From an uncultured Deinococcales bacterium (GTDB taxonomy: Bacteria; Deinococcota; Deinococci; Deinococcales; JAAFIG01), in NCBI GenBank assembly GCA_964247135.1, contig CAXTTL010000025.1:1-32325 (forward strand): a stretch of 32,325 nucleotides of DNA. The letters are read 5' to 3'. The translations under genes and the position numbers were made by a program. The notes under the pieces are model-generated. The model saw only the letters and a program-made list of their open reading frames with translations, searched no databases and was not told where the DNA came from. Shown piece after piece: positions 8,127-31,955 of this stretch; the first letter of the stretch is position 1, and every line of letters begins with the position of its first letter.

Positions 8127-10394
8127 ATGGGTCCTCACATTTACGGCATTCGTCATCACGGTCCAGGCTCGAGCCGTAGCTTGCAACGCGCTTTAGAATC
8201 GCTGGAGCCAGATTGCATTCTGATTGAAGGTCCACCAGAGGCGAATGGCATCCTGTCGTTCGTCTCGAGCGCCCAGATGCGCCCGCCGATTGCCATTCTG
8301 GTTCATAACGCCCAAACACCATCGCTTGCCGTCTATTACCCTTTTGCGGCGTTCAGTCCAGAGTGGGCTGCGATAAAATTCGGGCTGGCTCGAGCTTTGC
8401 CGGTGCGGTTCATGGATTTGCCGCAGGCGCATCAGTTGCTCGAGCAAGAATCTCGACCCGAAATTGAATTGCCTGAACTTGACCGCTCGAGCCTTCCAAG
8501 CCCAACTGAAATCCCGATTCAAAACGATCCTTTAAGTTGGCTGGCACGCGCCGCAGGTTTTTCGGACGGCGAACGATACTGGGAATATCTGGTCGAATCC
8601 AGGGACGATGCGACCGATGTTTTCCCCGCGATTCTGGAGGCAATGACGGCACTGCGCACCGAGGCTTCAAATGCGCCAGATTTTGTGCTCGAAGCCCGAG
8701 AGGCGAGGCGCGAAGCTTACATGCGCCAAACCATTCGCGCCGCGCAAAAAGAGGGTTTTGAAAAAATTGCGGTGGTTTGCGGCGCATGGCACTCGCCCGT
8801 TTTGGATGTCTCGGGCGAAAACATTCCGAATGCAAAATCTGATGCCGCAACCTTGAAAGACCTGCCCAAAGCCAAGGTTTCCGCCACCTGGACGCCCTGG
8901 ACGCACGGGCGTCTGTCGCGCTCGAGCGGCTACGGCGCGGGCGTGGATTCGCCAGGTTGGTATGCGCACCTGTTCGAGTATTCGCATTCTGGTTCAAGCC
9001 TGGTCACCACACATTGGATGGCGAGCATCGCGCGGTTGTTGCGCTCCGAAGGACTTGATGCCTCGAGTGCCAGCGTGATTGAAGCGGTGCGATTATCCCA
9101 AACCATCTCGAGTTTGCGCGGACTGCCGATGCCAGGGTTGGGCGATCTTTCTGACGCGGCTCGAGCGGTGTTCTTGTCCGATTCCGAATTGCCAATGGCA
9201 CTGATTCATGACCGTTTGATCGTCGGCGAAACCTTGGGTTCAGTGCCGAGCGAAGTGCCAACCGTGCCGTTGCAACGCGACCTCGAAGCCTTGCAAAAGC
9301 GTTTGCGAATGCAGCCAGAAGCCGTCGAGAAAACCCTCGAGCTGGATTTGCGCAAACCCAATGACCTCGAGCGTTCGGTGTTGCTGCACCGTTTAAATTT
9401 GCTGGGCATCAATTGGGGCGAAATCCGCAACTCGAGCGGCACTGGAACGTTTAAGGAAACCTGGCAATTGCGTTGGCAACCCGAGTTCGCGGTGCGAATC
9501 ATCGAAATGGGCGCTTACGGGCAAAGTGTTCTGGAGGCGGCAAGTGCTTACGCCAAGGAACTTTCGGACAAATCTCGAGCCTTGCCAGAATTGACAAATC
9601 TTCTCGACTTGGTTTTGCTTGCCGCGCTGCCCAACGCCACCAGCCATTTGCTCTCAAGGCTCGAGGCGGAATCGGCGCTCTCGAGTGACGTGCCAGTGCT
9701 GATGGCTGCCATTGTGCCACTCGCTCGGGTGTTGCGCTATTCCGATGTCCGTCAAACCGACGCTGGCGTGGTGGGTCATGTGGTGAATGGTTTGATCGCT
9801 CGGGTCAGCGTGGGCTTGCCAGGGGCGAGCCTGAGTCTGTCAGACGAAGCTGCCGAGCATCTTTTTAAACTCGTGCTCGAGGTCAACGCCTCCATTTCAA
9901 CCCTCAACCTTCCCGAGCACCTCGAGACTTGGTTTGAAACGCTTGAAACCATCTCGAGTAAATCTGGCATTCACGGTCTGATCGCGGGTCGCGCCGTGAG
10001 GTTGCTGCTCGAGGCTGGTCGTTTGAATGCAGAACACGCCGCCAAACACCTGGGTTTTGCCGCCTCGAGCGCCAGCGACCCAGCCCAAGTTGGCGTTTGG
10101 GTCGAAGGTTTCTTGACGGGCAGCGGTTTAGTCTTGCTGCACGATGACATCCTCTGGGATGTGCTCGAGAACTGGTTGATGTCACTGACCGAAGAACATT
10201 TTATCGCCGTGCTGCCCTTGCTGCGCCGCACCTTCTCGAGCTTTCCCGCGCCCGAACGTCGCAGCATGGGTGAAAAAGCCAAACACGGCGAAACTCGAGT
10301 GCTGCAAACACAAGAACTGGAAGTTGATGAAGCTCGAGCGGGGTTGGTGCTGCCTTTAATCGCCAAAATGCTTGGACTCGAGGTTCAAACTTGA
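8127..10394 (+). CDS. DUF5682/YehM-like protein
   Basis: GIRHHGPGS, LIEGP, YYPFA.FSPEW.A, RE.YMR, VVCGAWH, SGYGAG..SP.WY and LPLLRRTFS motifs. Confidence 0.85.
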   Translation: MGPHIYGIRHHGPGSSRSLQRALESLEPDCILIEGPPEANGILSFVSSAQMRPPIAILVHNAQTPSLAVYYPFAAFSPEWAAIKFGLARALPVRFMDLPQAHQLLEQESRPEIELPELDRSSLPSPTEIPIQNDPLSWLARAAGFSDGERYWEYLVESRDDATDVFPAILEAMTALRTEASNAPDFVLEAREARREAYMRQTIRAAQKEGFEKIAVVCGAWHSPVLDVSGENIPNAKSDAATLKDLPKAKVSATWTPWTHGRLSRSSGYGAGVDSPGWYAHLFEYSHSGSSLVTTHWMASIARLLRSEGLDASSASVIEAVRLSQTISSLRGLPMPGLGDLSDAARAVFLSDSELPMALIHDRLIVGETLGSVPSEVPTVPLQRDLEALQKRLRMQPEAVEKTLELDLRKPNDLERSVLLHRLNLLGINWGEIRNSSGTGTFKETWQLRWQPEFAVRIIEMGAYGQSVLEAASAYAKELSDKSRALPELTNLLDLVLLAALPNATSHLLSRLEAESALSSDVPVLMAAIVPLARVLRYSDVRQTDAGVVGHVVNGLIARVSVGLPGASLSLSDEAAEHLFKLVLEVNASISTLNLPEHLETWFETLETISSKSGIHGLIAGRAVRLLLEAGRLNAEHAAKHLGFAASSASDPAQVGVWVEGFLTGSGLVLLHDDILWDVLENWLMSLTEEHFIAVLPLLRRTFSSFPAPERRSMGEKAKHGETRVLQTQELEVDEARAGLVLPLIAKMLGLEVQT

Positions 10395-10409
10395 AATGGG
10401 TTTCTTGGA

Positions 10410-10580
10410 TTCCCTCTCATCCCCGACCCGTCTTGCTCACAAGACAGCACCTCACGGGCTGTTCGCGCTTCTCTCCTTGGAAAGAAGGGATTTGGTCTTG
10501 TGTTGAATGGCGGCATAAATTGTCAAGACCAGACCATGCCCGAAACAAGGTCTTGTAGGGGTGAACCTTGTGTTCACCCT
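10410..10580. repeat. Structured intergenic mosaic with a GTAG-type REP-like hairpin
   Basis: GTAG followed by GGGTGAAC-CTTGT-GTTCACCC (10555-10579). Further inverted repeats: GTCTTG/CAAGAC (10430-10445) and CAAGACC/GGTCTTG (10524-10555). Confidence 0.5.
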
Positions 10581-10629
10581 CGAGCACAGTGATTTTTGAA
10601 GATAGAACTCGAAATTTTGGAGGGCAACC

Positions 10630-11307
10630 ATGAAATTATTCGATCAAATACCCGCATCCTGGCAACCGTATCTCGAGCAAGAATTTCAACAGCCGTACAT
10701 TCAAAAACTCGAGGCGTTTCTCGAGGCTGAACGTGCCACGCAGCAGGTCTTCCCACCTGCCGAAAATGTCTTCAGGGCGCTCGAGTTGACGCCGTTTGAA
10801 AACGTGAAAGTCGTGATTTTGGGGCAGGACCCGTATCACGACGACGGTCAAGCGCACGGGCTGGCGTTCAGCGTGCAGCCTGGCGTCAAAGCGCCACCAA
10901 GCTTGGTGAACATGTTCAAAGAACTCGAGACGGATTTGGGCATTCCCAGACCAAAAACGGGTTTTCTCGAGGCTTGGGCGCGGCAGGGAGTCTTGATGCT
11001 GAATGCGGTCTTGACGGTTCGGGCGCACGCGGCGGGCAGCCACCAAAAGCAGGGTTGGGAAAAACTGACCGATGCGATCATCAAAGCCATCTCGAGCCAC
11101 AAAACGGGGGTGGTGTTCGTGCTCTGGGGCGCGTATGCGCACAAAAAAGCGGAGCTGATTGACGCGACTCGCCACACGGTTTTGAAAGCGGTGCATCCGT
11201 CGCCGCTCTCGGCGCGAAACGGTTTTTTTGGCTCCAAACCATTCTCGAGCATCAATACAGCGTTGCGCGAATCTGGAAAGTCCGAGATTGATTGGAGGCT
11301 CGAGTGA
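10630..11307 (+). CDS. ung: Uracil-DNA glycosylase, family 1
   Basis: [36 protein letters not shown] and HPSPLSA motifs; GGAGG SD. Confidence 0.97.
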
Positions 11308-12470
11308 TTGCCGAACCCGAACGCTTGCGGCGTTGGCGTTTGATCCTCGGTGGGGGAGATGCCGACGGTACGGGCTGCCAATTGCAGGGCGCAGACGCCA
11401 GACTCGATGGGGCGCTCGAGAATGTCTACATGACGCCCGAGGAAAAAGAAAAAAACCGTTTGAACGTCGGCAAGGGTGCGAGCCGCCCAAACGTGGCGCG
11501 TTGGCTGGGTGACATCCGCGAGTTCTTTCCAAGTTCGGTGGTGCGCGTGATGCAGCAAGACGCGCTCGAGCGGCTGGGTTTAAAGCAGATGTTGCTCGAG
11601 CCTGAAATGATGGAAGCCGTGCAGCCCGACGTGCATTTGGTGGCAACCTTGCTATCCTTAAAATCTTTGCTCAAAGGCAAAGCCCGAGACACCGCCCGCG
11701 TTGTGGTGCGCAAGGTTGTGGACGAACTCGAGCGTAAACTTGCCAACCCAACACGGCAGGCGGTCATGGGGAGCCTCAACCGTGCCGCCAGAAACAACCG
11801 CCCCAAGCACAACGAGATCGACTGGAACTTGACGATTCGTGCCAACCTCAAGCATTACCAAGCCGAGTACCGCACGATTGTTCCAGAGCGGCGCATCGGT
11901 TACGGACGCAAACGCTCGGCACTCCGAGACATTATTTTGTGCGTCGATCAGAGCGGTTCGATGGCATCGAGCGTGGTTTACGCCGGCATTTTTGGTGCTG
12001 TGCTCGCCAGTATGCCCGCGCTGCGGACCAAAGTGGTTGTTTATGACACCAGCGTGGTCGATTTGACCGATCAACTTTCCGACCCAGTTGAAGTGCTGTT
12101 CGGCACCCAACTTGGCGGCGGCAACGACACGCCACTGGCGCTGAGGTACTGTCAGACCTTACTCGAGCGACCGCAGGACACCATTTTTGTGCTGATTTCG
12201 GACTTGTATGAGGGTTACGGCAGCGCCGAAATGCTTGAGCGTTTGAAAGGTTTTGTCGCCAGCGGCGTGCAGGTGATTACCTTGCTGGCGCTTTCCGATG
12301 ATGGTCGCCCGAGTTTTGACCAGCAAAACGCGGCGGCGATGGCGGCGATGGACATTCCAGTGTTTGCCTGCACGCCAGATAAATTTCCGGACTTGATGGC
12401 AGCCGCGATCAACCGCGCCGACATTGGGCAATGGGCGGCGACGCAAGAGATTGTCACGGCTCGAGCCTGA
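11304..12470 (+). CDS. vWA-domain protein, YehP/CoxE-like
   Basis: [11 protein letters not shown]-terminus; [29 protein letters not shown] at 11304 overlaps the ung stop (GTGA), with GGAGG at 11294. Confidence 0.9.
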
Positions 12471-12479
12471 ATCTCGAGT

Positions 12480-12519
12480 TTGACTGAAACGCGTACCTTG
12501 AGTTATGCTGTAAACAGAA
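12480..12519 (+). promoter_or_regulatory. Sigma-70-like promoter overlapped by an RDRM (DdrO operator)-like 17-mer
   Basis: TTGACT (12480-85), N18, TATGCT (12504-09). TTATGCTGTAAACAGAA (12503-12519) fits TT(A/C)(T/C)G(T/C)-N5-(A/G)C(A/G)(T/G)AA. Confidence 0.6.
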
Positions 12520-12911
12520 TGAAAAAACTTGTTCCGATTCTGCCGTCCAAAAACATTCCCGAATCGCTCGAGTTTTATGGGCGCGTGTACGGCTTTTCTA
12601 ACGCTTGGGCTTGGACGAAATCGGGACAGCAACTCAGCGATTTCTCGAGCAGCAATCACAAAGAGATTGTGTACGGTGGCTTAAGCGAACCCTTGATCGT
12701 TCACTTTTGGTTTGCAGAAGAAAAATTGGTGCTCGAGAGTGCCGGTTTTAGAATCGAAGTTGAAGACATCGACGCCATGTTTAAAAAGTGCAAAGCCGCC
12801 AATTGTGTGCATCCAAACGCGCCGCTCGAGGTGAAACCTTGGGGTTCAAAAGAATTCGGCACCCTTGACCCGAGCGGTATACTGGTCACGATTTTTCAAG
12901 ATGCAAATTGA
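12519..12911 (+). CDS. VOC-fold protein, bleomycin-resistance-protein-like
   Basis: MKKLVPILPSKNIPESLEFY..GF, RIEVEDIDA, KPWGSKEFGTLDPSG. ATG at 12519 preferred over the upstream TTG, which coincides with the -35 box. Confidence 0.8.
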   Translation: MKKLVPILPSKNIPESLEFYGRVYGFSNAWAWTKSGQQLSDFSSSNHKEIVYGGLSEPLIVHFWFAEEKLVLESAGFRIEVEDIDAMFKKCKAANCVHPNAPLEVKPWGSKEFGTLDPSGILVTIFQDAN

Positions 12912-12922
12912 CGGGAGGCGTC

Positions 12923-13309
12923 ATGGAAAAAGTCAGCGGAATTGGTGGCGTGTTCTTAAAAGCCAAGAATCCAGAAACGATGGCGGTTTGGTACGAAACC
13001 CATCTTGGGATTTCGTTTGCAGGCAATGAATACGCGATTTTGAACTGGCGCGAATCCATGACTGCCGAGCAAAATCCGGTGACGGTATTTTCCTTTTTTC
13101 CCGACGACACCAGCTATTTTGCCCCTTCAACCAGCCAATTCATGATGAATTTTCGGGTTAATAACCTTGATGCCATGCTCGAGCAACTCAAAAATGCTGG
13201 TGTGAAGGTGATGCCCGAAATCACCGAAGATGACAACGGTCGTTTCGCTCGGATTCTTGACCCCGAAGGCAACAAAATCGAATTGTGGCAACCTGCGCCA
13301 GGGATGTGA
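12923..13309 (+). CDS. VOC/glyoxalase family protein
   Basis: KVSGIGGVF, FMMNFRV.NLD, GRFARILDPEGNKIELWQP; GGAGG SD. Confidence 0.9.
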   Translation: MEKVSGIGGVFLKAKNPETMAVWYETHLGISFAGNEYAILNWRESMTAEQNPVTVFSFFPDDTSYFAPSTSQFMMNFRVNNLDAMLEQLKNAGVKVMPEITEDDNGRFARILDPEGNKIELWQPAPGM

Positions 13310-13328
13310 TTCGTTTCGGAGGTAAGCC

Positions 13329-13703
13329 ATGAAACTTGACATAATCGGCATCATCGTAAATAACACCGCCCGCAGCCTAGCGTTTTACCGCAAACTCGGT
13401 TGGAAGATTCCTGAAATCGCCCCAGATGAAAACCATGTTGAAATCACACTCGAGAATGGCTTGCGTTTTGCCTGGGATGAACTGGCGATGGTGCAAACAT
13501 TTGACCCCGAAGCCAAGATTTCGGAACAGTACGTCGGCGCATTCTTGTGCGCTAGCCCCGCCGACGTGGACGCCAAATACCTCGAGATGACCGAGGCGGG
13601 TTATGTGGGACATAAAGCACCGTGGGATGCCTTCTGGGGGCAACGCTATGCGATCCTCAAAGACCCAGACGGTCATAAACTCGATTTGTTCGCGCCGTTG
13701 TAA
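13329..13703 (+). CDS. VOC/glyoxalase family protein
   Basis: IGIIV....RSLAFYRKLG, PWDAFWGQRYA..KDPDG..DLFAPL. Confidence 0.9.
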   Translation: MKLDIIGIIVNNTARSLAFYRKLGWKIPEIAPDENHVEITLENGLRFAWDELAMVQTFDPEAKISEQYVGAFLCASPADVDAKYLEMTEAGYVGHKAPWDAFWGQRYAILKDPDGHKLDLFAPL

Positions 13704-13711
13704 ATTAACGT

Positions 13712-14194
13712 ATGCTCAAACTTGCCGCCATTGTTGTCAACAAATCTCAAGCCGAAATTCTCGGGGTTTTCCCAGATTTAATGCCCTCGAGCCACGGTGC
13801 ATTCAGTCGGGTGCAAATGCCCGAGCCGCAAAAATTCACCGAAGTTTGGTACGCCGATCTCGAGTCGCCAATTCCAAAGTTTGCCGATGAAATTTCACAA
13901 AAGCTACAATGTGCCGCGCTTGGTGTGATCAACTGGGACGATGATTTGCTGCGAGTCTGGGCGTTCTCGAATGGCGAATTTGTGACGACCTACGATTCCA
14001 ATCCGTCTTACGCCACTTGCACCATCACGCCACCAGAACTCGAGCCTGACACTGGCGAAAAACTGGCAACGCTTTTTGGTGTTCCAGAAAAAGCCGAAGC
14101 CGTGCGTAAATTACTGACCCGCAAAAAAGGATTTGGCTTCATCAATGAAACCCAGCGCCTCGAGCAATTGTTTGCGCTGCTCGAGATTCCGTGA
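13712..14194 (+). CDS. Hypothetical protein (160 aa)
   Basis: Tightly packed in the operon (8-nt gap upstream, GTGA overlap downstream); carries host-typical CTCGAG sites; no family recognised. Confidence 0.75.
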   Translation: MLKLAAIVVNKSQAEILGVFPDLMPSSHGAFSRVQMPEPQKFTEVWYADLESPIPKFADEISQKLQCAALGVINWDDDLLRVWAFSNGEFVTTYDSNPSYATCTITPPELEPDTGEKLATLFGVPEKAEAVRKLLTRKKGFGFINETQRLEQLFALLEIP

Positions 14195-15255
14195 AGGTTC
14201 TCACGCCAAAACAAATCCATGCCGCTCGAGCAAAGCGTCAATTTCTGACGCCCTCAACCCGTGGCAGTTCGGACTCGGATTACCTCGAGATTCTTCGCGC
14301 ACTCGCGCCGATGCGTCCACCGAGTTACGAATTTCCTGGAACGCCGGTTTGCTTGCACGACCGTCATGTGCCGTCCGATGGCTCGAGTGAAAAAACCGTT
14401 GGCGAACGGGTTCGGCGTGAAGGTTTGGTGGTCAAAAGTCGGTTTCAACACGGCAATGTCGGCTATGTCCCAAGCGATGAGATGCCGCTGTTTGTCGGCG
14501 CATTCAAAAAATCCAAAAGTTTAAGTTGGGACGATTCAGCCGTGCTCGAGACACTTCAACGTGAAGGTCCATTGCAGAAAAAAGACTTGGGCGAAATGAG
14601 CGGCGTCAAAGGCAAAACCCTGACCGCTGCACTGCAAAACCTGCAAGCCAATTTTCTGGCGTTTGAACAGCAACTCGAGACAGAATGGGACAATCCTTGG
14701 GGAGCCATCGAAACCGAACATCCTGCCTGGCTCGAGGATGTGCCAGAGCAATTTGAGGCGCGACTTGAGGTGATAAGGCGTTTCACCCACGCGCATGTCT
14801 TCTCGAGTGCGCGAGAGGTCAAAGACTGGTCGGGTTTTACGGGCAAAGACGTGGCTGTGCTGCTCGAGGAACTGCTTTCAACTGGTCATCTCGAGAAATC
14901 GACCGTTGACGGTTGGGACGAGCATTACCTCGTGACCAATTTTGAAGATGTCCCGCTCGAGCCTCACGTGGCAATCCTTGACCCTGGCGATCCGCTGGCA
15001 ACGGCGCAAATTTCCTACCTCAAAGCCGATTATCCAAAATTGCCTGTGCTCAAATACGTATTGATTGACGGCGAAATTTGCGGTTTGGTCGAAGGACGTT
15101 GGGGGATCAACCCGTTTGATGTGACCGATGTTCACGTGCCAGAACACGCTCGAGAAGGTATGTTAAGGCTCGAGATTATTGAGAAGCTTCGGAGGCATTT
15201 TCCGTTGCCAGCGCAAAAGATTTTGAAGTTTGCGGGTGAGGCTCTGGATCATTAA
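14191..15255 (+). CDS. Winged-helix protein, divergent AlkZ/YcaQ (HTH_42)-like DNA glycosylase
   Basis: Size ~350 aa; R...QFL N-terminus; tandem wHTH-like segments (ETLQREGPLQKKDL; RRFTHAH..SSAREVKDWSG); ILDPGDP; VLIDGEICG..W. No clear QxD/QxQ catalytic motif. Confidence 0.55.
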   Translation: MKVLTPKQIHAARAKRQFLTPSTRGSSDSDYLEILRALAPMRPPSYEFPGTPVCLHDRHVPSDGSSEKTVGERVRREGLVVKSRFQHGNVGYVPSDEMPLFVGAFKKSKSLSWDDSAVLETLQREGPLQKKDLGEMSGVKGKTLTAALQNLQANFLAFEQQLETEWDNPWGAIETEHPAWLEDVPEQFEARLEVIRRFTHAHVFSSAREVKDWSGFTGKDVAVLLEELLSTGHLEKSTVDGWDEHYLVTNFEDVPLEPHVAILDPGDPLATAQISYLKADYPKLPVLKYVLIDGEICGLVEGRWGINPFDVTDVHVPEHAREGMLRLEIIEKLRRHFPLPAQKILKFAGEALDH

Positions 15256-15336
15256 CTCGAGAGACGGTTTTTCGTTTTCAGCACGTTATAAAATCTGATT
15301 TTGCTCGAGTAAGACTTTGACTTGCTACAATTGCGC

Positions 15337-16776
15337 ATGAACACTTTTTGGACTCGAGTTTTGCTGATGTTTTTGGTTTTGGGGCTGGTTGCTTGTCCAC
15401 GTTACCCAATAGATTTTGGTGACCCCAGTGTGGTTCGTGGCACTTTCAATGGCACATTCACGACCCATTGCGGTTTTCGTCTTCTTGGGTCGGCATGGAG
15501 TCCAGACAGTTCTAAAATCGCAACCCTTGACTCGAGAAACAATGGTCATTTGATTGTTTGGGATGCTGTGACAGGTGTTCAACTTGACAGTGTGGATCAG
15601 GTTGGGTGGAATTTGAGAGAAGACGCCGCACTGGGTTGGACGAGCGACGGTCAACGTGTAATCGTGCCAGATCGTAGCAGCATCCCAGAGAAATTACGCT
15701 TTTATAACGTTCAAAATAAGGCTTTTGATGCGGAAACAAAGCTGAACGGATTTATTGGAGCATCTGTCCTGTATTTTAGCCGTAGCGGTACTCGATTTTG
15801 GACTTCAACAAGAACACCATCAAATGACGCCTCGATTGTTTCATATCTCAAAATTGACATCTGGGACGTATCTTCAGGTCAATTGATTCGTACTTTTCAA
15901 TTTGCCAATCATTCATGGTGGGATTTTGATTTTGCGCTCAGTTTGAGTGGGGAACAACTGGTTTACTCCAATAATTCAATCGTGCAAGTTTGGTCTGTTG
16001 CTACAGGAGAAAAAACACATGAATGGAAATTGGCTGGGAATTTCATTCTGGGTTTGCAATTTACCCAAAATGACAAATTTGTAAATGGGGTAAAAGTAGC
16101 AAGTCCAGATGGGATCAATCCGCGTTTTGTCCGTTTTAACCTTGATTCACTGGAATTGACAGAGCAAGCAGAAATGCCAGGTAGATTGCTGGATTTTTCT
16201 GACGATGGACTTCAGGCGGCATTGAGCAATTACCAATTCGATTCACGTTTTACGAAGATTCAGACCTTTGACCTCGAAACTGGAATGTTATCTAAACCCA
16301 TCCTGGAAACGAATTTTCAAGAAAAAGGAAAACTCAGTCCGAATGGTCAATCTGTTTTACTAACAGGTGAATATTCACTTTGTGGTTTACAACGCGTGAA
16401 ACTTTCCGATGGCAGTGAACAAAAACTTTTGCTTCTACCATCAAAAAACCTAACTGTGACGCTACAACTGAACGCAATCTGGCAAAATGAATCTCAATAC
16501 CAGGTGACCGGTACGGCATCCATTGGCGATGTGAAAGGTTTAACTGTAATTGGAACAGGATATCCCGAAGGTGATAAATATTTTGTTAATCCCAAAACTT
16601 CACCCATTCGTCCTCCATACACTGAACTCAAAATTCGAGACAATGGTTCGCAGGTTTGGTCTGGCACTCTATTCAATTATGGGTCGCAAGGGCAAGCCAA
16701 CACCTACTCAGGGAATTTTTTTATTGGAAATGACTACGATGTTGTTTATGGTCTTGAGGTCACACGAACGCCTTGA
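15337..16776 (+). CDS. Lipoprotein with WD40-like beta-propeller
   Basis: Lipobox LVAC; repeats WSPDSSKIA..IVWD, IWDVSSG, VWSVATG, FSDDG, LSPNG; TACAAT 5 nt before ATG 15337; AT-richer than its flanks. Confidence 0.8.
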   Translation: MNTFWTRVLLMFLVLGLVACPRYPIDFGDPSVVRGTFNGTFTTHCGFRLLGSAWSPDSSKIATLDSRNNGHLIVWDAVTGVQLDSVDQVGWNLREDAALGWTSDGQRVIVPDRSSIPEKLRFYNVQNKAFDAETKLNGFIGASVLYFSRSGTRFWTSTRTPSNDASIVSYLKIDIWDVSSGQLIRTFQFANHSWWDFDFALSLSGEQLVYSNNSIVQVWSVATGEKTHEWKLAGNFILGLQFTQNDKFVNGVKVASPDGINPRFVRFNLDSLELTEQAEMPGRLLDFSDDGLQAALSNYQFDSRFTKIQTFDLETGMLSKPILETNFQEKGKLSPNGQSVLLTGEYSLCGLQRVKLSDGSEQKLLLLPSKNLTVTLQLNAIWQNESQYQVTGTASIGDVKGLTVIGTGYPEGDKYFVNPKTSPIRPPYTELKIRDNGSQVWSGTLFNYGSQGQANTYSGNFFIGNDYDVVYGLEVTRTP

Positions 16777-27839: not shown

Positions 27840-28634
27840 ATGAATGATGATATTCATTTTCTTCGAGAAACAGTCGTCAATATCGATGCCGCTGTGGTTG
27901 GTATCAGTTCATCAAGTTGGGTATCTGCATCAGCGGAATCTACCGAGGAATCGGCGCGTAGTATTATGGAACCCAATCGCTTTGACATTCTTCCAATCGA
28001 AAATCCTAAGGGCGTGCGTGAGTATTTTAAAACAGACATCTATAACCAATATTCAGCAATTTCTCGTCACGCTATTGGTCATCGTGATGTTGTTCCCTTT
28101 TCCACGCCAATACGAACCATTGTTGAGCGATTTTCTATAGATAAAAGAACTTTTCTCTTTCTGGTGAACGAGCGACGCATTGTTGGTTTGATCACACTAT
28201 CAAATTTAAACTGCCGACAAGTATCGATTTATTTGTTTAGCTTATTTACGGAATTAGAGGTTAAAATAGGCAATTTATTGATGAAAAACTGTAAAGAAGA
28301 TGAGATAAAAAATTTAACTTTTGAAAATAGTAATTATCCTAAACACCGAGGTATTAAAAATCGCTATAAAGAAGATAAAGAAAACGGAGTAGAAATCCCG
28401 GTAGTTGAATATCTATATCTATCAGATTTAATAAATCTGATAGAAACAAAGAAATTTTATAGAGATATTGGTCTTCAAGATGATGAAGAATCTAAAAAAA
28501 TTCTTAAAGATTTGAATAAAACGCGAAATACTGCTGCTCACCCAATAAAATCTATAATATTAGATTTGGATTCATGTTGTGAATTATGGAAACAAATAGA
28601 GCTTGTAGAAAATATCTTATTTTACCTTCGATAA
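27840..28634 (+). CDS. Putative CBS-pair plus Swt1-like HEPN protein
   Basis: CBS-like ARSIM...FDILPI and TPI..IV..F....FLFLV..RRIVGLITLSNLN; helical C-terminus with YLYLSDLINLI and RNTAAH (R-x4-H); very AT-rich; no CTCGAG. Confidence 0.65.
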   Translation: MNDDIHFLRETVVNIDAAVVGISSSSWVSASAESTEESARSIMEPNRFDILPIENPKGVREYFKTDIYNQYSAISRHAIGHRDVVPFSTPIRTIVERFSIDKRTFLFLVNERRIVGLITLSNLNCRQVSIYLFSLFTELEVKIGNLLMKNCKEDEIKNLTFENSNYPKHRGIKNRYKEDKENGVEIPVVEYLYLSDLINLIETKKFYRDIGLQDDEESKKILKDLNKTRNTAAHPIKSIILDLDSCCELWKQIELVENILFYLR

Positions 28635-28696
28635 ATTTGATTAATTCCCATCCTATTTCTTAATTTCTTATTTTTCAAGGTAGAGGTGATTGAATC

Positions 28697-29047
28697 ATGG
28701 CATTAAAAAAATGGCAACACGCAATTCACGCTGTTTTTAAGAAATTACAAGATTATCAAACGCCTATGCCTGACGGTTTAGAACGTGAATTTATTCTGGA
28801 TGACCAAAACGGGCATTACCAGATTCTGGATGTCGGTTGGATAGACCAAAAACCTGTGCAAGACATCATGGTGCATATTGACCTTAAAAACGATTTTGTT
28901 TGGGTGCAAGCCGATAACACCACCCACGGCATTGTGGATGCGCTTCTCGAGCAAGGTGTGCCTCAAAATCGGATTGTGCTTGGTTTTCATGCGCCGTATA
29001 AAAGAAAATTTACGGGTTTTGCAACTGGTACGGAAATTTCTGCGTAA
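28697..29047 (+). CDS. XisI family protein
   Basis: D...GHYQI..VGW, HIDLKN..VWVQ.D.T..GI...LLEQGVP...IVLGF..PY.R..TGFA. Confidence 0.9.
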   Translation: MALKKWQHAIHAVFKKLQDYQTPMPDGLEREFILDDQNGHYQILDVGWIDQKPVQDIMVHIDLKNDFVWVQADNTTHGIVDALLEQGVPQNRIVLGFHAPYKRKFTGFATGTEISA

Positions 29048-29096
29048 CTTGAGGACATTTTTCAAGTTCGTTTTGACCCTCGAGAACGCTAGACAT

Positions 29097-29489
29097 TTAC
29101 CTTATTAAGCGGATTTTAACTTTTAAGTTTGGAATTTTATTCCAACTTTGTTCCGCTGTTAAAACGTGCAAACCTTTTGCCTCTGCCAGAGCCAGACACG
29201 CACAGTCCCCCAATGAAAGTTCGTAAGGGTTACGTCTCGCATAAAAAAATGCCACGCCTTCGGCTTGTTGGCGGTCTAAATCAGCCAACTCGAGCAATGC
29301 TCCAAAAGCTTCTAGCGCTGCATCCACTTGCTTTGATGTGTGAGTGCCGCTTCCAACCAATTTTCCTTTGGTTTCGGCGTAATTGATTACCGACATCAAA
29401 AAGCCGTGTTGAAGTTGTTCTTCAACCACAGCCGCACCGTTTTCGTCTCGAATGAAGGCGATCAAGGCACTCGAATCAATCACGTACAA
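29097..29489 (-). CDS. vapC: VapC/PIN-domain toxin
   Basis: YVIDSSALIA, SVINYAE, LSLGDCACLALA, VLTAE; 1 nt downstream of the antitoxin stop. Confidence 0.9.
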   Translation of the reverse strand: MYVIDSSALIAFIRDENGAAVVEEQLQHGFLMSVINYAETKGKLVGSGTHTSKQVDAALEAFGALLELADLDRQQAEGVAFFYARRNPYELSLGDCACLALAEAKGLHVLTAEQSWNKIPNLKVKIRLIR

Positions 29490-29490
29490 C

Positions 29491-29760
29491 TTAAAAACCC
29501 TTCTTTTTGGCTTCCAAACGACGATTCTCGAGCAATTCTGAAGTCAAATCTTTACTGTCGTCTGTTTTTAGAATTCCGCGCAAGCGTTTCGCCAAAGCTT
29601 GACGGGTGACGAGTACAACGTGGTCGCCTTCGAGGGTCGCAATCAATTCATCACCAGATTGAATGCCCAGAGCGCGACGGTATTCGACTGGAATAACAGC
29701 CTGTCCTTTTGGTCCAACAGTTACGGTTTGGCTTAACTTTGGAGCAAAGGTTTTACTCAT
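29491..29760 (-). CDS. vapB: AbrB/MazE-type antitoxin (VapB)
   Basis: VTVGPKGQAVIPVEYRRALGIQSGDEL; ATG 29760 lies 6 nt after TATACT on the minus strand. Confidence 0.88.
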   Translation of the reverse strand: MSKTFAPKLSQTVTVGPKGQAVIPVEYRRALGIQSGDELIATLEGDHVVLVTRQALAKRLRGILKTDDSKDLTSELLENRRLEAKKKGF

Positions 29761-29766
29761 AAAATA

Positions 29767-29790
29767 AGTATAATACAAATGTATTTGTAT
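29767..29790 (-). promoter_or_regulatory. vapBC -10 box and adjacent palindromic operator
   Basis: TATACT (minus strand, 29767-72) abuts a perfect ATACAAAT-GT-ATTTGTAT inverted repeat (29773-90). Confidence 0.7.
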
Positions 29791-31187: not shown

Positions 31188-31955
31188 TTAGCTCGAACCT
31201 TTAACCATTCGAGTTTCCTTTTCAATCACCGTGAAGACCACAAAAACCACATTCCCTTCGGGGTGAACATCCACCACGGCTTTCATTTTTTTGCCGCTTC
31301 TGAATGGAATATAACTTTCATCCGTCAGCGGCAATCCAGTCTCGAGCGCAACATGGGCTGGATGATCTTGGGGAATGATCGTGCCGTTGCTGAGTGGGTA
31401 ACGCATTTCACTGGTGCGGGTGCTAAATTCCACCTCGAGCATCTTGGCTTTGGCGCGAAGTACACCAACAATCGCTTTACCCTCCAGACTTTGCGCCAAA
31501 ACCACGCAGGCGGCAGGTCGTGAAATCGTAAAGCTTTTAACGATGCGTGGGATCGCTCGAGCGCCGCGTCCGTATTTTTGCAGCAGTGCCTCGAGTTCGA
31601 TTTCTGGCACAAGTATCGCACTTGCCCCGACGTTGCACAATATCTCGATGGCTTCCTCGAGATCATCGCCTTGGTAAGCGTCGTGCAAGTCCGAGAGCAG
31701 GTCGTCGTCTGCGAGAATCAAAGCATGGGTGACTTCGTGTGCCATCGTGAAGCGTTGACGCTCGAGGGTCACGGTTTTGGAAATAAAAATCACGTTGCGG
31801 TTTGGGTCGAACGCGCCGTCTTTGTCGCCCAGATCGCCGTACTCGAGTTTTGCGCCGATGGCGGCGGCAAGGTCGAGGGGTTCTCGAGCAGGGTGCGAAA
31901 GGTTGAACTCGGCGGCGAGTTCGCGCACTCGGGTTTTGTGTTCCTGTAAGACCAC
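31188..31955 (-). CDS. irrE: IrrE/PprI zinc metalloprotease
   Basis: DGAFDP, RQRFTMAHEVTH (HExxH), DDDLLSDLHDAY.GD.LE..IE.LCNVGA, PFRSGKKM. Confidence 0.93.
   Translation of the reverse strand: MVLQEHKTRVRELAAEFNLSHPAREPLDLAAAIGAKLEYGDLGDKDGAFDPNRNVIFISKTVTLERQRFTMAHEVTHALILADDDLLSDLHDAYQGDDLEEAIEILCNVGASAILVPEIELEALLQKYGRGARAIPRIVKSFTISRPAACVVLAQSLEGKAIVGVLRAKAKMLEVEFSTRTSEMRYPLSNGTIIPQDHPAHVALETGLPLTDESYIPFRSGKKMKAVVDVHPEGNVVFVVFTVIEKETRMVKGSS

Follow-up and report, generated by a model that had tools for sequence, protein, structure and literature searches.

The regulon of the Deinococcus radiation/desiccation response (RDR) is known as a collection of DNA repair genes and Deinococcus-specific ddr and ppr genes, to which species-specific additions have been documented; one of these is ddrTUVWX, a published RDR operon (PMC5552922). 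Its repressor, DdrO, is cut between L106 and R107 by IrrE, in a conserved loop (PMC6868357). The RDR motifs (RDRMs) of D. radiodurans collected in Table 2 of PMC8533742 are backed by ChIP-seq and RNA-seq, many of them also by electrophoretic mobility shift assay, and include sites at -17, +4 and +9 relative to start codons. The D. radiodurans DdrO regulon is reported to include metabolic genes as well (PMC8533742). Here we describe a run of five genes that follows a predicted RDRM-type operator of 17 base pairs in contig CAXTTL010000025.1 of an uncultured Deinococcales bacterium (assembly GCA_964247135.1; positions 1 to 32,325 of the forward strand, the whole of which is referred to as the window). 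On balance, we lean towards reading this site as a working RDRM operator, and the genes behind it as an operon, probably leaderless, that DdrO represses and IrrE derepresses and that serves to sequester genotoxins and handle lesions.

The operator, TTATGCTGTAAACAGAA, is the sole zero-mismatch match in the 32,325 bases to TTMTGYNNNNNNCRKAA, the degenerate RDRM pattern of a preliminary description of this DNA. The pattern fits both strands of the site, and both of its half-sites fit the inverted repeat TTMTGY. Dinucleotide-preserving shuffles gave a mean of 0.21 matches to TTMTGYNNNNNNCRKAA, with at least two matches in 4 of 100 shuffles. The wider pattern TTMYGYNNNNNNCRKAA was matched seven times in the window with at most one mismatch (11.27 expected), and with zero mismatches at 12503-12519 only. 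Taken by itself, the RDRM match is modestly above chance, suggestive rather than compelling. These comparisons employed IUPAC patterns and a few sites judged by eye, drawn from ~40 published D. radiodurans sites; they score the operator against the Deinococcus consensus and D. radiodurans sites, from which the RDRM of the host lineage itself may differ. As a positive control, a zero-mismatch RDRM was recovered 20 nucleotides (nt) ahead of the SWIM (ddrT) gene in a plasmid locus of D. taeanensis (L011). Set beside the sites in Table 2 of PMC8533742, the operator shares 14 of 17 positions with the cinA(-ligT-recA) site and also 14 of 17 with that of ddrD; the orthologous site of a related locus (L003, below) agrees with the latter at 16 of 17. 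Other RDRM-like sites in the window, 64 positions with at most two mismatches, were set aside, none of them being well placed. One RDRM-like palindrome, TTCCGTTGCCAGCGCAA, has one mismatch per strand and lies at 15200-15216, within the 3' end of the gene 5 coding sequence and ~105 nt upstream of an inserted open reading frame (ORF) at 15322-16776; it is probably due to chance, since ~11 matches of such quality are expected per window.

As RDRMs do, the operator overlaps a promoter, here a predicted promoter-like pair in which TTGACT and TATGCT are separated by 18 nt (12480-12509), and its final base, 12519, is the A of the gene 1 ATG. A TTG at 12480 was considered as the start of gene 1 and rejected: in four of five orthologues an in-frame TAA lies between this TTG and the ATG, and the ATG at 12519 is therefore taken as the start. 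No Shine-Dalgarno sequence was found ahead of gene 1, so that its mRNA is probably leaderless or carries a very short leader, and GGAGG-type ribosome sites precede genes 2 and 3. In D. deserti, leaderless mRNAs were put at 60%, and transcription starts were found upstream of, within or downstream of RDRMs (PMC4007540).

The conservation of the site was followed in nine loci (L001-L009, ~130 kb in total), obtained from one scan of genome contigs with an alignment of gene 5 relatives. The closest relatives of the window genes are found in metagenome-assembled genomes labelled Deinococcales bacterium. Five of the loci (L001, L002, L003, L005 and L006) are syntenic with the window by tblastn, and genes 1, 3, 4 and 5 recur in every one of them, a contig end cutting gene 5 in L006; L001 has an additional DUF1801 gene between genes 3 and 4. 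The strict RDRM pattern occurs once in each of these five loci, each time with the A of the gene 1 start codon as its last base. Over the window and the nine loci it has six matches, all abutting the gene 1 ATG, and none in the four fetched loci that lack gene 1. When the six promoters are aligned, the operator varies in only 4 of its 17 columns, at motif positions 8, 9, 10 and 12, its degenerate centre, and the other 13 are invariant; in the spacer beside it, invariant columns number 5 of 17. In L002 (7805-8734) and L006 (360-1305), the upstream VWA gene is separated from the gene 1 promoter by an insert of ~0.9 kb that includes a minus-strand ORF of 143-149 amino acids (aa) with no Pfam family; promoter and RDRM are intact downstream of the insert. 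A more distant, CTCGAG-rich Deinococcales genome (L004) lacks genes 1-4 and carries a gene 5 homologue, 76% identical, which follows a MATE efflux gene (8507-11059). The 75-nt gap upstream of this homologue contains TTCTGCTCACAGCGTAG, which differs from the RDRM pattern at its last base only and overlaps a -10-like TAGAAT 7 nt ahead of the ATG; in Table 2 of PMC8533742, the site of D. radiodurans ddrO has the same ending.

Both partners of the switch are encoded at the far end of the window. The visible part of the ddrO product matches D. geothermalis DdrO (6jq1) at E 6.9e-49, with 77 of 99 aligned residues identical; its first 25 visible residues (PYLSDLERG onward) are identical to the D. geothermalis protein, and the cleavage loop, IELRGKRP, is kept. 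The neighbouring IrrE homologue retains the HEXXH motif and matches the IrrE structures 8slm (E 3e-62) and 3dte (E 1.8e-58). The two genes are adjacent on the minus strand with 66 nt between them, whereas the D. deserti pair bears distant locus tags (Deide_20570 and Deide_03030). The gap holds a terminator-like hairpin (32002-31974) whose stem has 13 pairs and which is accompanied by a T-run; the irrE GTG start comes directly after it, and the linked arrangement resembles the usual XRE/COG2856 pairs.

Motif, position on the promoter, conservation among orthologues and the presence of DdrO and IrrE all point, at the level of sequence, to an RDR-type operator. This agrees with much of what the preliminary description had claimed for the control of these genes. 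The RDRM that it placed at 12503-12519 is real, being the sole exact match, covering the TATGCT -10 box and ending on the A of the ATG; the reported contact with the start codon stands and the start coordinate of 12520 does not, as the ATG begins at 12519. It had also located ddrO and irrE in the same window, which the structure matches bear out, and had proposed conservation in orthologous promoters as a check, for which the site, kept at the identical position in five of five loci, speaks favourably. The proposed control by DdrO is thus supported on its sequence side, by the conserved site, the 14 of 17 positions shared with bound sites and the ddrO and irrE genes.

Several observations count against this reading of the site. 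It departs at two positions, both central, from the published 15-mer consensus TATGYYHTTARCRKA (PMC8533742), and 1.03 such matches are expected per window. The promoter scan of the window returned 5 promoter-like sites, against 4.7 expected from shuffles. The N-terminus and promoter of ddrO lie outside the window, and no recA operon, ssb, gyrA/B, uvrA/B or ddrO promoter falls within the window or loci L001-L009. RDRM-like sites with at most two mismatches number 43 in L004 against 48 expected, which is within chance by count; for the site ahead of the gene 5 homologue it would be placement rather than count that matters, ~0.03 such matches being estimated for the 75-nt gap from the background of the wider pattern. 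Finally, the -10 box and the ATG fall on the half-sites, so that the conservation of these could reflect promoter and start-codon constraint alone.

This last point is the core of an alternative in which the RDRM likeness is coincidental: a constitutive leaderless promoter, not bound by DdrO, would account for the conserved bases by its -35, its -10 and its start context. One exact match to a degenerate pattern per 32 kb is not very rare, to judge from the shuffles with at least two, and the published consensus is reached only at a mismatch level that chance alone would meet once per window. Yet ACAGA (12514-12518), between the -10 box and the ATG, answers no promoter need, and four of its five bases are invariant in the six sequences as the upstream spacer drifts. 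Nor would coincidence readily explain the inverted repeat that fits both half-sites, the identity of 14 to 16 of 17 positions with experimentally bound D. radiodurans sites, or the second RDRM-like site, in a different context, ahead of gene 5 in L004. We regard a coincidental likeness as improbable.

Far less probable still, and hardly to be expected, is that the operator belongs to some other regulator, an XRE-type or LexA-type repressor with a similar palindrome. Its core, CTGTAAACAG, contains CTG and CAG, which we take to be reminiscent of SOS boxes, but these are spaced 4 nt apart, presumably far from the arrangement of an E. coli-type SOS box. LexA is present in some Deinococcus species (PMC8072749); here, no other regulator gene adjoins the operon, and invariance extends to the RDRM-defining outer bases, TTAT and GAA.

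If the operon is indeed under DdrO, its content sets it apart from the described regulon, as does its host, an uncultured Deinococcales lineage of ~52% GC. VOC/MRD-like binders, the orphan gene and the HTH_42 gene are absent from the regulon lists compared here. Specifically, no VOC, MRD-like or HTH_42 gene appears among the RDR members in Table 2 of PMC8533742 and Tables 2 and 4 of PMC5552922 (D. radiodurans, D. deserti and five other species), the supplementary lists of weaker DdrO candidates in PMC8533742 standing outside this comparison, and none appears in the accounts of the regulon in two reviews (PMC6300522, PMC8072749). Searches of the full-text literature returned nothing relevant that links DdrO with glyoxalase, RDRM with bleomycin or Deinococcus with YcaQ. 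The RDR regulon differs between species, and we therefore rate the operon as a new accessory member of a known regulon.

By Pfam, the five genes comprise three VOC genes (PF00903), one ORF of no family and one AlkZ-like gene (PF06224). Their junctions are short, measuring +11, +19 and +8 nt followed by a GTGA start/stop overlap, and no plus-strand terminator-like site was predicted within 12519-15255. The transcript may run past gene 5. In L001-L003, a cupin gene and a gene for a pyridoxal phosphate (PLP)-dependent decarboxylase lie within a few bases of the gene 5 end; in the window, the cupin gene is set off from gene 5 by the inserted ORF at 15322-16776 (484 aa, 44-45% GC). The only match of this ORF is a weak one to a beta-propeller (35 bits, the cut-off being 305); the ORF is missing from L001-L003 and is replaced by a distant fragment in L005.

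Among the products, the functional assignment is solid, by homology, for gene 3 only. It matches the structures of the Streptomyces lavendulae mitomycin-binding resistance protein, MRD (1kmz, 2a4w and 1kll), at E 4.6e-35 to 1.7e-34, and does so end to end: residues 3-124 of 124 align to MRD residues 5-129 of 130, with ~59 of 122 identical (~48%). The His of DENHVE and the Trp of AFWGQRY align with identical MRD residues, presumably His38 and Trp108 of its ligand clamp. MRD is described as gripping its ligand between two aromatic side chains (PMC3175449), and a similar drug-binding role may be expected of gene 3. The two settings differ: the present host is no producer, no mitomycin cluster or mct-type exporter lies nearby in the window, and gene 3 is placed under a predicted DNA-damage operator. 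The gene 3 family is very widespread, with 1435 matches that mostly carry generic VOC names, and none of its homologues on plasmids (4 plasmid records, all from actinomycetes) is on a Deinococcus plasmid.

The other two VOC proteins do less for a genotoxin-binding role. Gene 1 resembles BleO, BLMA and ZbmA in being a small VOC protein, its best specific matches being bleO and ZbmA (5cj3, E 0.0059), and its protein-atlas neighbours are all VOC/Ble clusters. Nevertheless, it reaches 39.8 bits (E 5e-10) with the bleO model against a cut-off of 275, and 19.5 bits with BLMA against 140, the C-terminal half alone aligning; its assignment as a Ble protein was rejected on these scores, far under the curated NCBIfam cut-offs, and membership of the VOC superfamily is what is retained. 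Gene 2, whose ATG at 12923 is preceded by GGGAGG and whose longest ORF opens at a TTG at 12908, is absent from three of the five syntenic loci, being kept in L001 and L003 only, and is to all appearances a generic, dispensable VOC protein. Both points weaken the sequestering role that our reading assigns to the operon.

For gene 5, fold and chemistry have to be kept apart. Its AlphaFold2 model (pLDDT 93, pTM 0.90) predicts the C-shaped tandem winged-helix fold, and Foldseek matched it to the AlkX/YcaQ-DNA structure 9zd6 and to AlkZ 5uuj (template modelling (TM) scores 0.73 and 0.71; E 4e-13 to 2e-12), as well as to the Lhr C-terminal domain (TM 0.59-0.61). It also passes the gathering score of PF06224, with 49.1 bits against 25.9, residues 178-301 alone aligning. 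Active glycosylases of this group are defined by an (H/Q)-aliphatic-(D/Q) motif in the winged-helix domain WH1 (PMC9040887, PMC13303869), and the Lhr C-terminal domain is described as devoid of it (PMC9040887). Gene 5 likewise has no such motif: Q45-I46-D47 of E. coli YcaQ falls on R42-P43-P44, Q, H and D are missing throughout residues 36-48 (RALAPMRPPSYEF), and LAPMRPP stands in the motif's place, the consensus of the wider family being (S/Q)-P-V nearby.

Similarity to solved AlkZ/YcaQ proteins is marginal in sequence. A search of solved structures with the gene 5 profile found 9zd6 only (E 0.0038) and no AlkZ, and hhalign against E. coli YcaQ gave a probability of 7.9% over the C-terminal 91 columns only. 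For this reason, the motif test rests on a family-anchored MAFFT alignment in which gene 5 and E. coli YcaQ were joined by 64 family representatives; 65 of the 150 representatives listed were of suitable length (320-400 aa), and P0120 was dropped, its N-terminus being unaligned. With gene 5 at 14% identity to the solved structures, the register of this alignment could be off by a few residues, and no such shift restores the motif. Glycosylase activity is therefore unproven, and any action on DNA would go by other than the canonical chemistry. The most conserved block of the family is instead FEQQLETEWDNPW (157-170), and gene 5, whose clade takes in 340 representative clusters at E <= 0.001, is to judge from these alignments an HTH_42-fold member of a distinct clade. 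Its homologues include none on a Deinococcus plasmid (1 plasmid record, from Subdoligranulum). The homologue in L007 (Trueperaceae, 10025-11054) lies in three pieces in different frames and looks broken or affected by frame errors in the assembly; around the distant homologues in L008 and L009, the gene context was uninformative.

Gene 4 travels with gene 5 and is an orphan. Neither Pfam nor NCBIfam matched it, and its 22 matches, 21 relatives besides itself, include none with a Pfam domain: a Pfam search of all 22 at E up to 5 produced noise only (CSD in 6 of 22, best E 0.059). Its profile found nothing better than E 1.2 among PDB sequences, its predicted fold had no PDB match by Foldseek at E <= 0.001 (best E 0.055), and the protein atlas placed it in unnamed clusters only. 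An invariant Cys103 lies in a low-confidence loop, DSNPSYATCTITPPE. The predicted complex of genes 5 and 4 (score 0.01, mark 0.32) speaks neither way.

These assignments leave room for a reading in which DdrO controls the operon and yet no defence against exogenous genotoxins is involved. The VOC proteins would then handle endogenous electrophiles or oxidised metabolites of desiccation or oxidative stress, and the HTH_42 protein would, like the Lhr C-terminal domain, bind DNA or serve as a scaffold. In favour of this, the assignment of genes 1 and 2 stops at superfamily level, gene 5 has no catalytic motif and resembles that very domain, metabolic genes also occur in the D. radiodurans regulon, and no biosynthetic cluster or drug exporter stands beside the operon in the window. 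Against it are the ~48% identity of gene 3 to MRD, known from structures with mitomycin-class ligands bound, the retention in gene 3 of the His and Trp that align with the aromatic clamp (the identity of the clamp being partly our assumption), and the MATE efflux gene adjoining the gene 5 homologue of L004, which we count as support for a role in genotoxin defence. We consider this endogenous role unlikely, though a possibility to be taken seriously.

The preliminary description had interpreted the locus as a damage-inducible module of sequestration and repair, and as an overall interpretation this holds in part. Its tightly packed five-gene run was recovered in Pfam content and short junctions alike, and its statement that the described RDR regulon does not contain the module is consistent with the regulon lists compared and with the literature searches. 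The regulatory side is supported by sequence. The sequestering half is upheld for gene 3 (full-length MRD match, E 4.6e-35), weak for gene 1 and dropped for gene 2, and the repair half is weakened, the AlkZ/YcaQ fold being recovered (TM 0.71-0.73) and the catalytic motif being missing.

In the mechanism that we favour, a DdrO dimer would occupy the operator during normal growth, and, with the operator holding the -10 box and reaching the start codon, RNA polymerase would be excluded. Upon DNA damage, IrrE would cut DdrO at the conserved L/R bond and the repressor would fall apart. Derepression would then yield a leaderless or near-leaderless mRNA that starts at, or just before, the ATG at 12519 and spans genes 1-5, in the relatives probably together with the cupin and decarboxylase genes. 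The MRD-type product of gene 3 would bind mitomycin-like planar genotoxins, gene 1 may supply a second, Ble/ZbmA-like binder, and gene 2 would add a dispensable VOC protein. The gene 5 product would act as an AlkZ/YcaQ-fold DNA binder for bulky or crosslinked lesions, by means other than the canonical Q-x-Q/Q-x-D chemistry, with the gene 4 product as a putative orphan partner. The coordinates of the features are collected in Table 1.

Table 1. Features of the predicted DdrO-controlled operon and of the ddrO-irrE pair in the window
Feature	Coordinates	Strand	Basis or remark
-35-like hexamer TTGACT	12480..12485	+	promoter scan; TTGAC invariant in 6/6 aligned promoters
Predicted DdrO operator, RDRM-type, TTATGCTGTAAACAGAA	12503..12519	.	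pattern match and conservation
-10-like hexamer TATGCT, within operator	12504..12509	+	promoter scan; invariant in promoter alignment
Gene 1, VOC, 130 aa, weakly Ble/ZbmA-like	12519..12911	+	PF00903 24.8 bits vs 20.6 cut-off
Gene 2, generic VOC, accessory	12923..13309	+	PF00903 34.6 bits; Rv0577 3oxh E 2.5e-05
Gene 3, homologue of mitomycin-binding resistance protein MRD	13329..13703	+	PDB 1kmz/2a4w/1kll; GGAGG upstream
Gene 4, orphan, 160 aa	13712..14194	+	no family; AlphaFold2 pLDDT 88
Gene 5, HTH_42 (AlkZ/YcaQ fold), 354 aa	14191..15255	+	GTG start overlaps gene 4 stop
irrE homologue, M78 metalloprotease, HEVTH visible	31188..31955	-	PF06114 and structure matches
ddrO, C-terminal 100 codons	32022..32324	-	5' end and promoter beyond window

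The surroundings of the operon offer further observations. Upstream lie genes for a DUF5682 protein (8127-10394), a uracil-DNA glycosylase (10630-11307) and a VWA CoxE-like protein (11292-12470), an order that recurs in L001, L002 and L005. The DUF5682 and VWA genes match the last two genes of ddrTUVWX as found in the D. taeanensis locus (SWIM-DUF5691-AAA-hyp-DUF5682-VWA), the VWA protein being 61% identical; the SWIM, DUF5691 and AAA genes, and any RDRM ahead of them, are absent from the window. A low-GC stretch at 27840-29778 (34% at 28001-29000) holds an XisI-family gene (28697-29047) and, on the minus strand, a PIN/MazE-type toxin-antitoxin pair (29097-29778). The palindrome CTCGAG is present in 218 copies in the 32325 bases (6.7 per kb), both inside and between genes, against 23 copies of the next commonest 6-base palindrome. 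Its density is 6-8 per kb in L001-L006 and below 1 per kb in Trueperaceae, Lentisphaerae, Phycisphaeraceae and E. coli loci; the literature search found no paper on CTCGAG as an iterated palindrome. Rfam has no family in the window.

A bolder proposal can be made for genes 4 and 5, namely that they form a new damage-induced pair for lesion processing. The HTH_42 protein, having lost its Q-x-Q/D site, would work from a different centre, such as the invariant Q161-L-E163-T-E-W block, or act in sensing lesions, and the invariant, exposed C103 of gene 4 would be a sacrificial acceptor or a catalytic nucleophile for electrophilic drug-DNA adducts. Combined with the MRD-like binder, this would be the first bacterial damage regulon that switches on antidotes to natural-product genotoxins in a non-producer. 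We put it forward as a speculation that is more apt to prove wrong than any doubt raised above about the origin of the motif or the role of the VOC proteins, the case of another regulator aside. The operon nonetheless gives a handle on the function of HTH_42 proteins that have no glycosylase motif, and on a confidently folded orphan that travels with one of them. If our reading of the operator is true, the damage switch of one Deinococcales lineage would also activate proteins of the type that producers use for self-resistance to mitomycin- and bleomycin-class compounds, and the radiation/desiccation response would be linked to chemical warfare between microbes.

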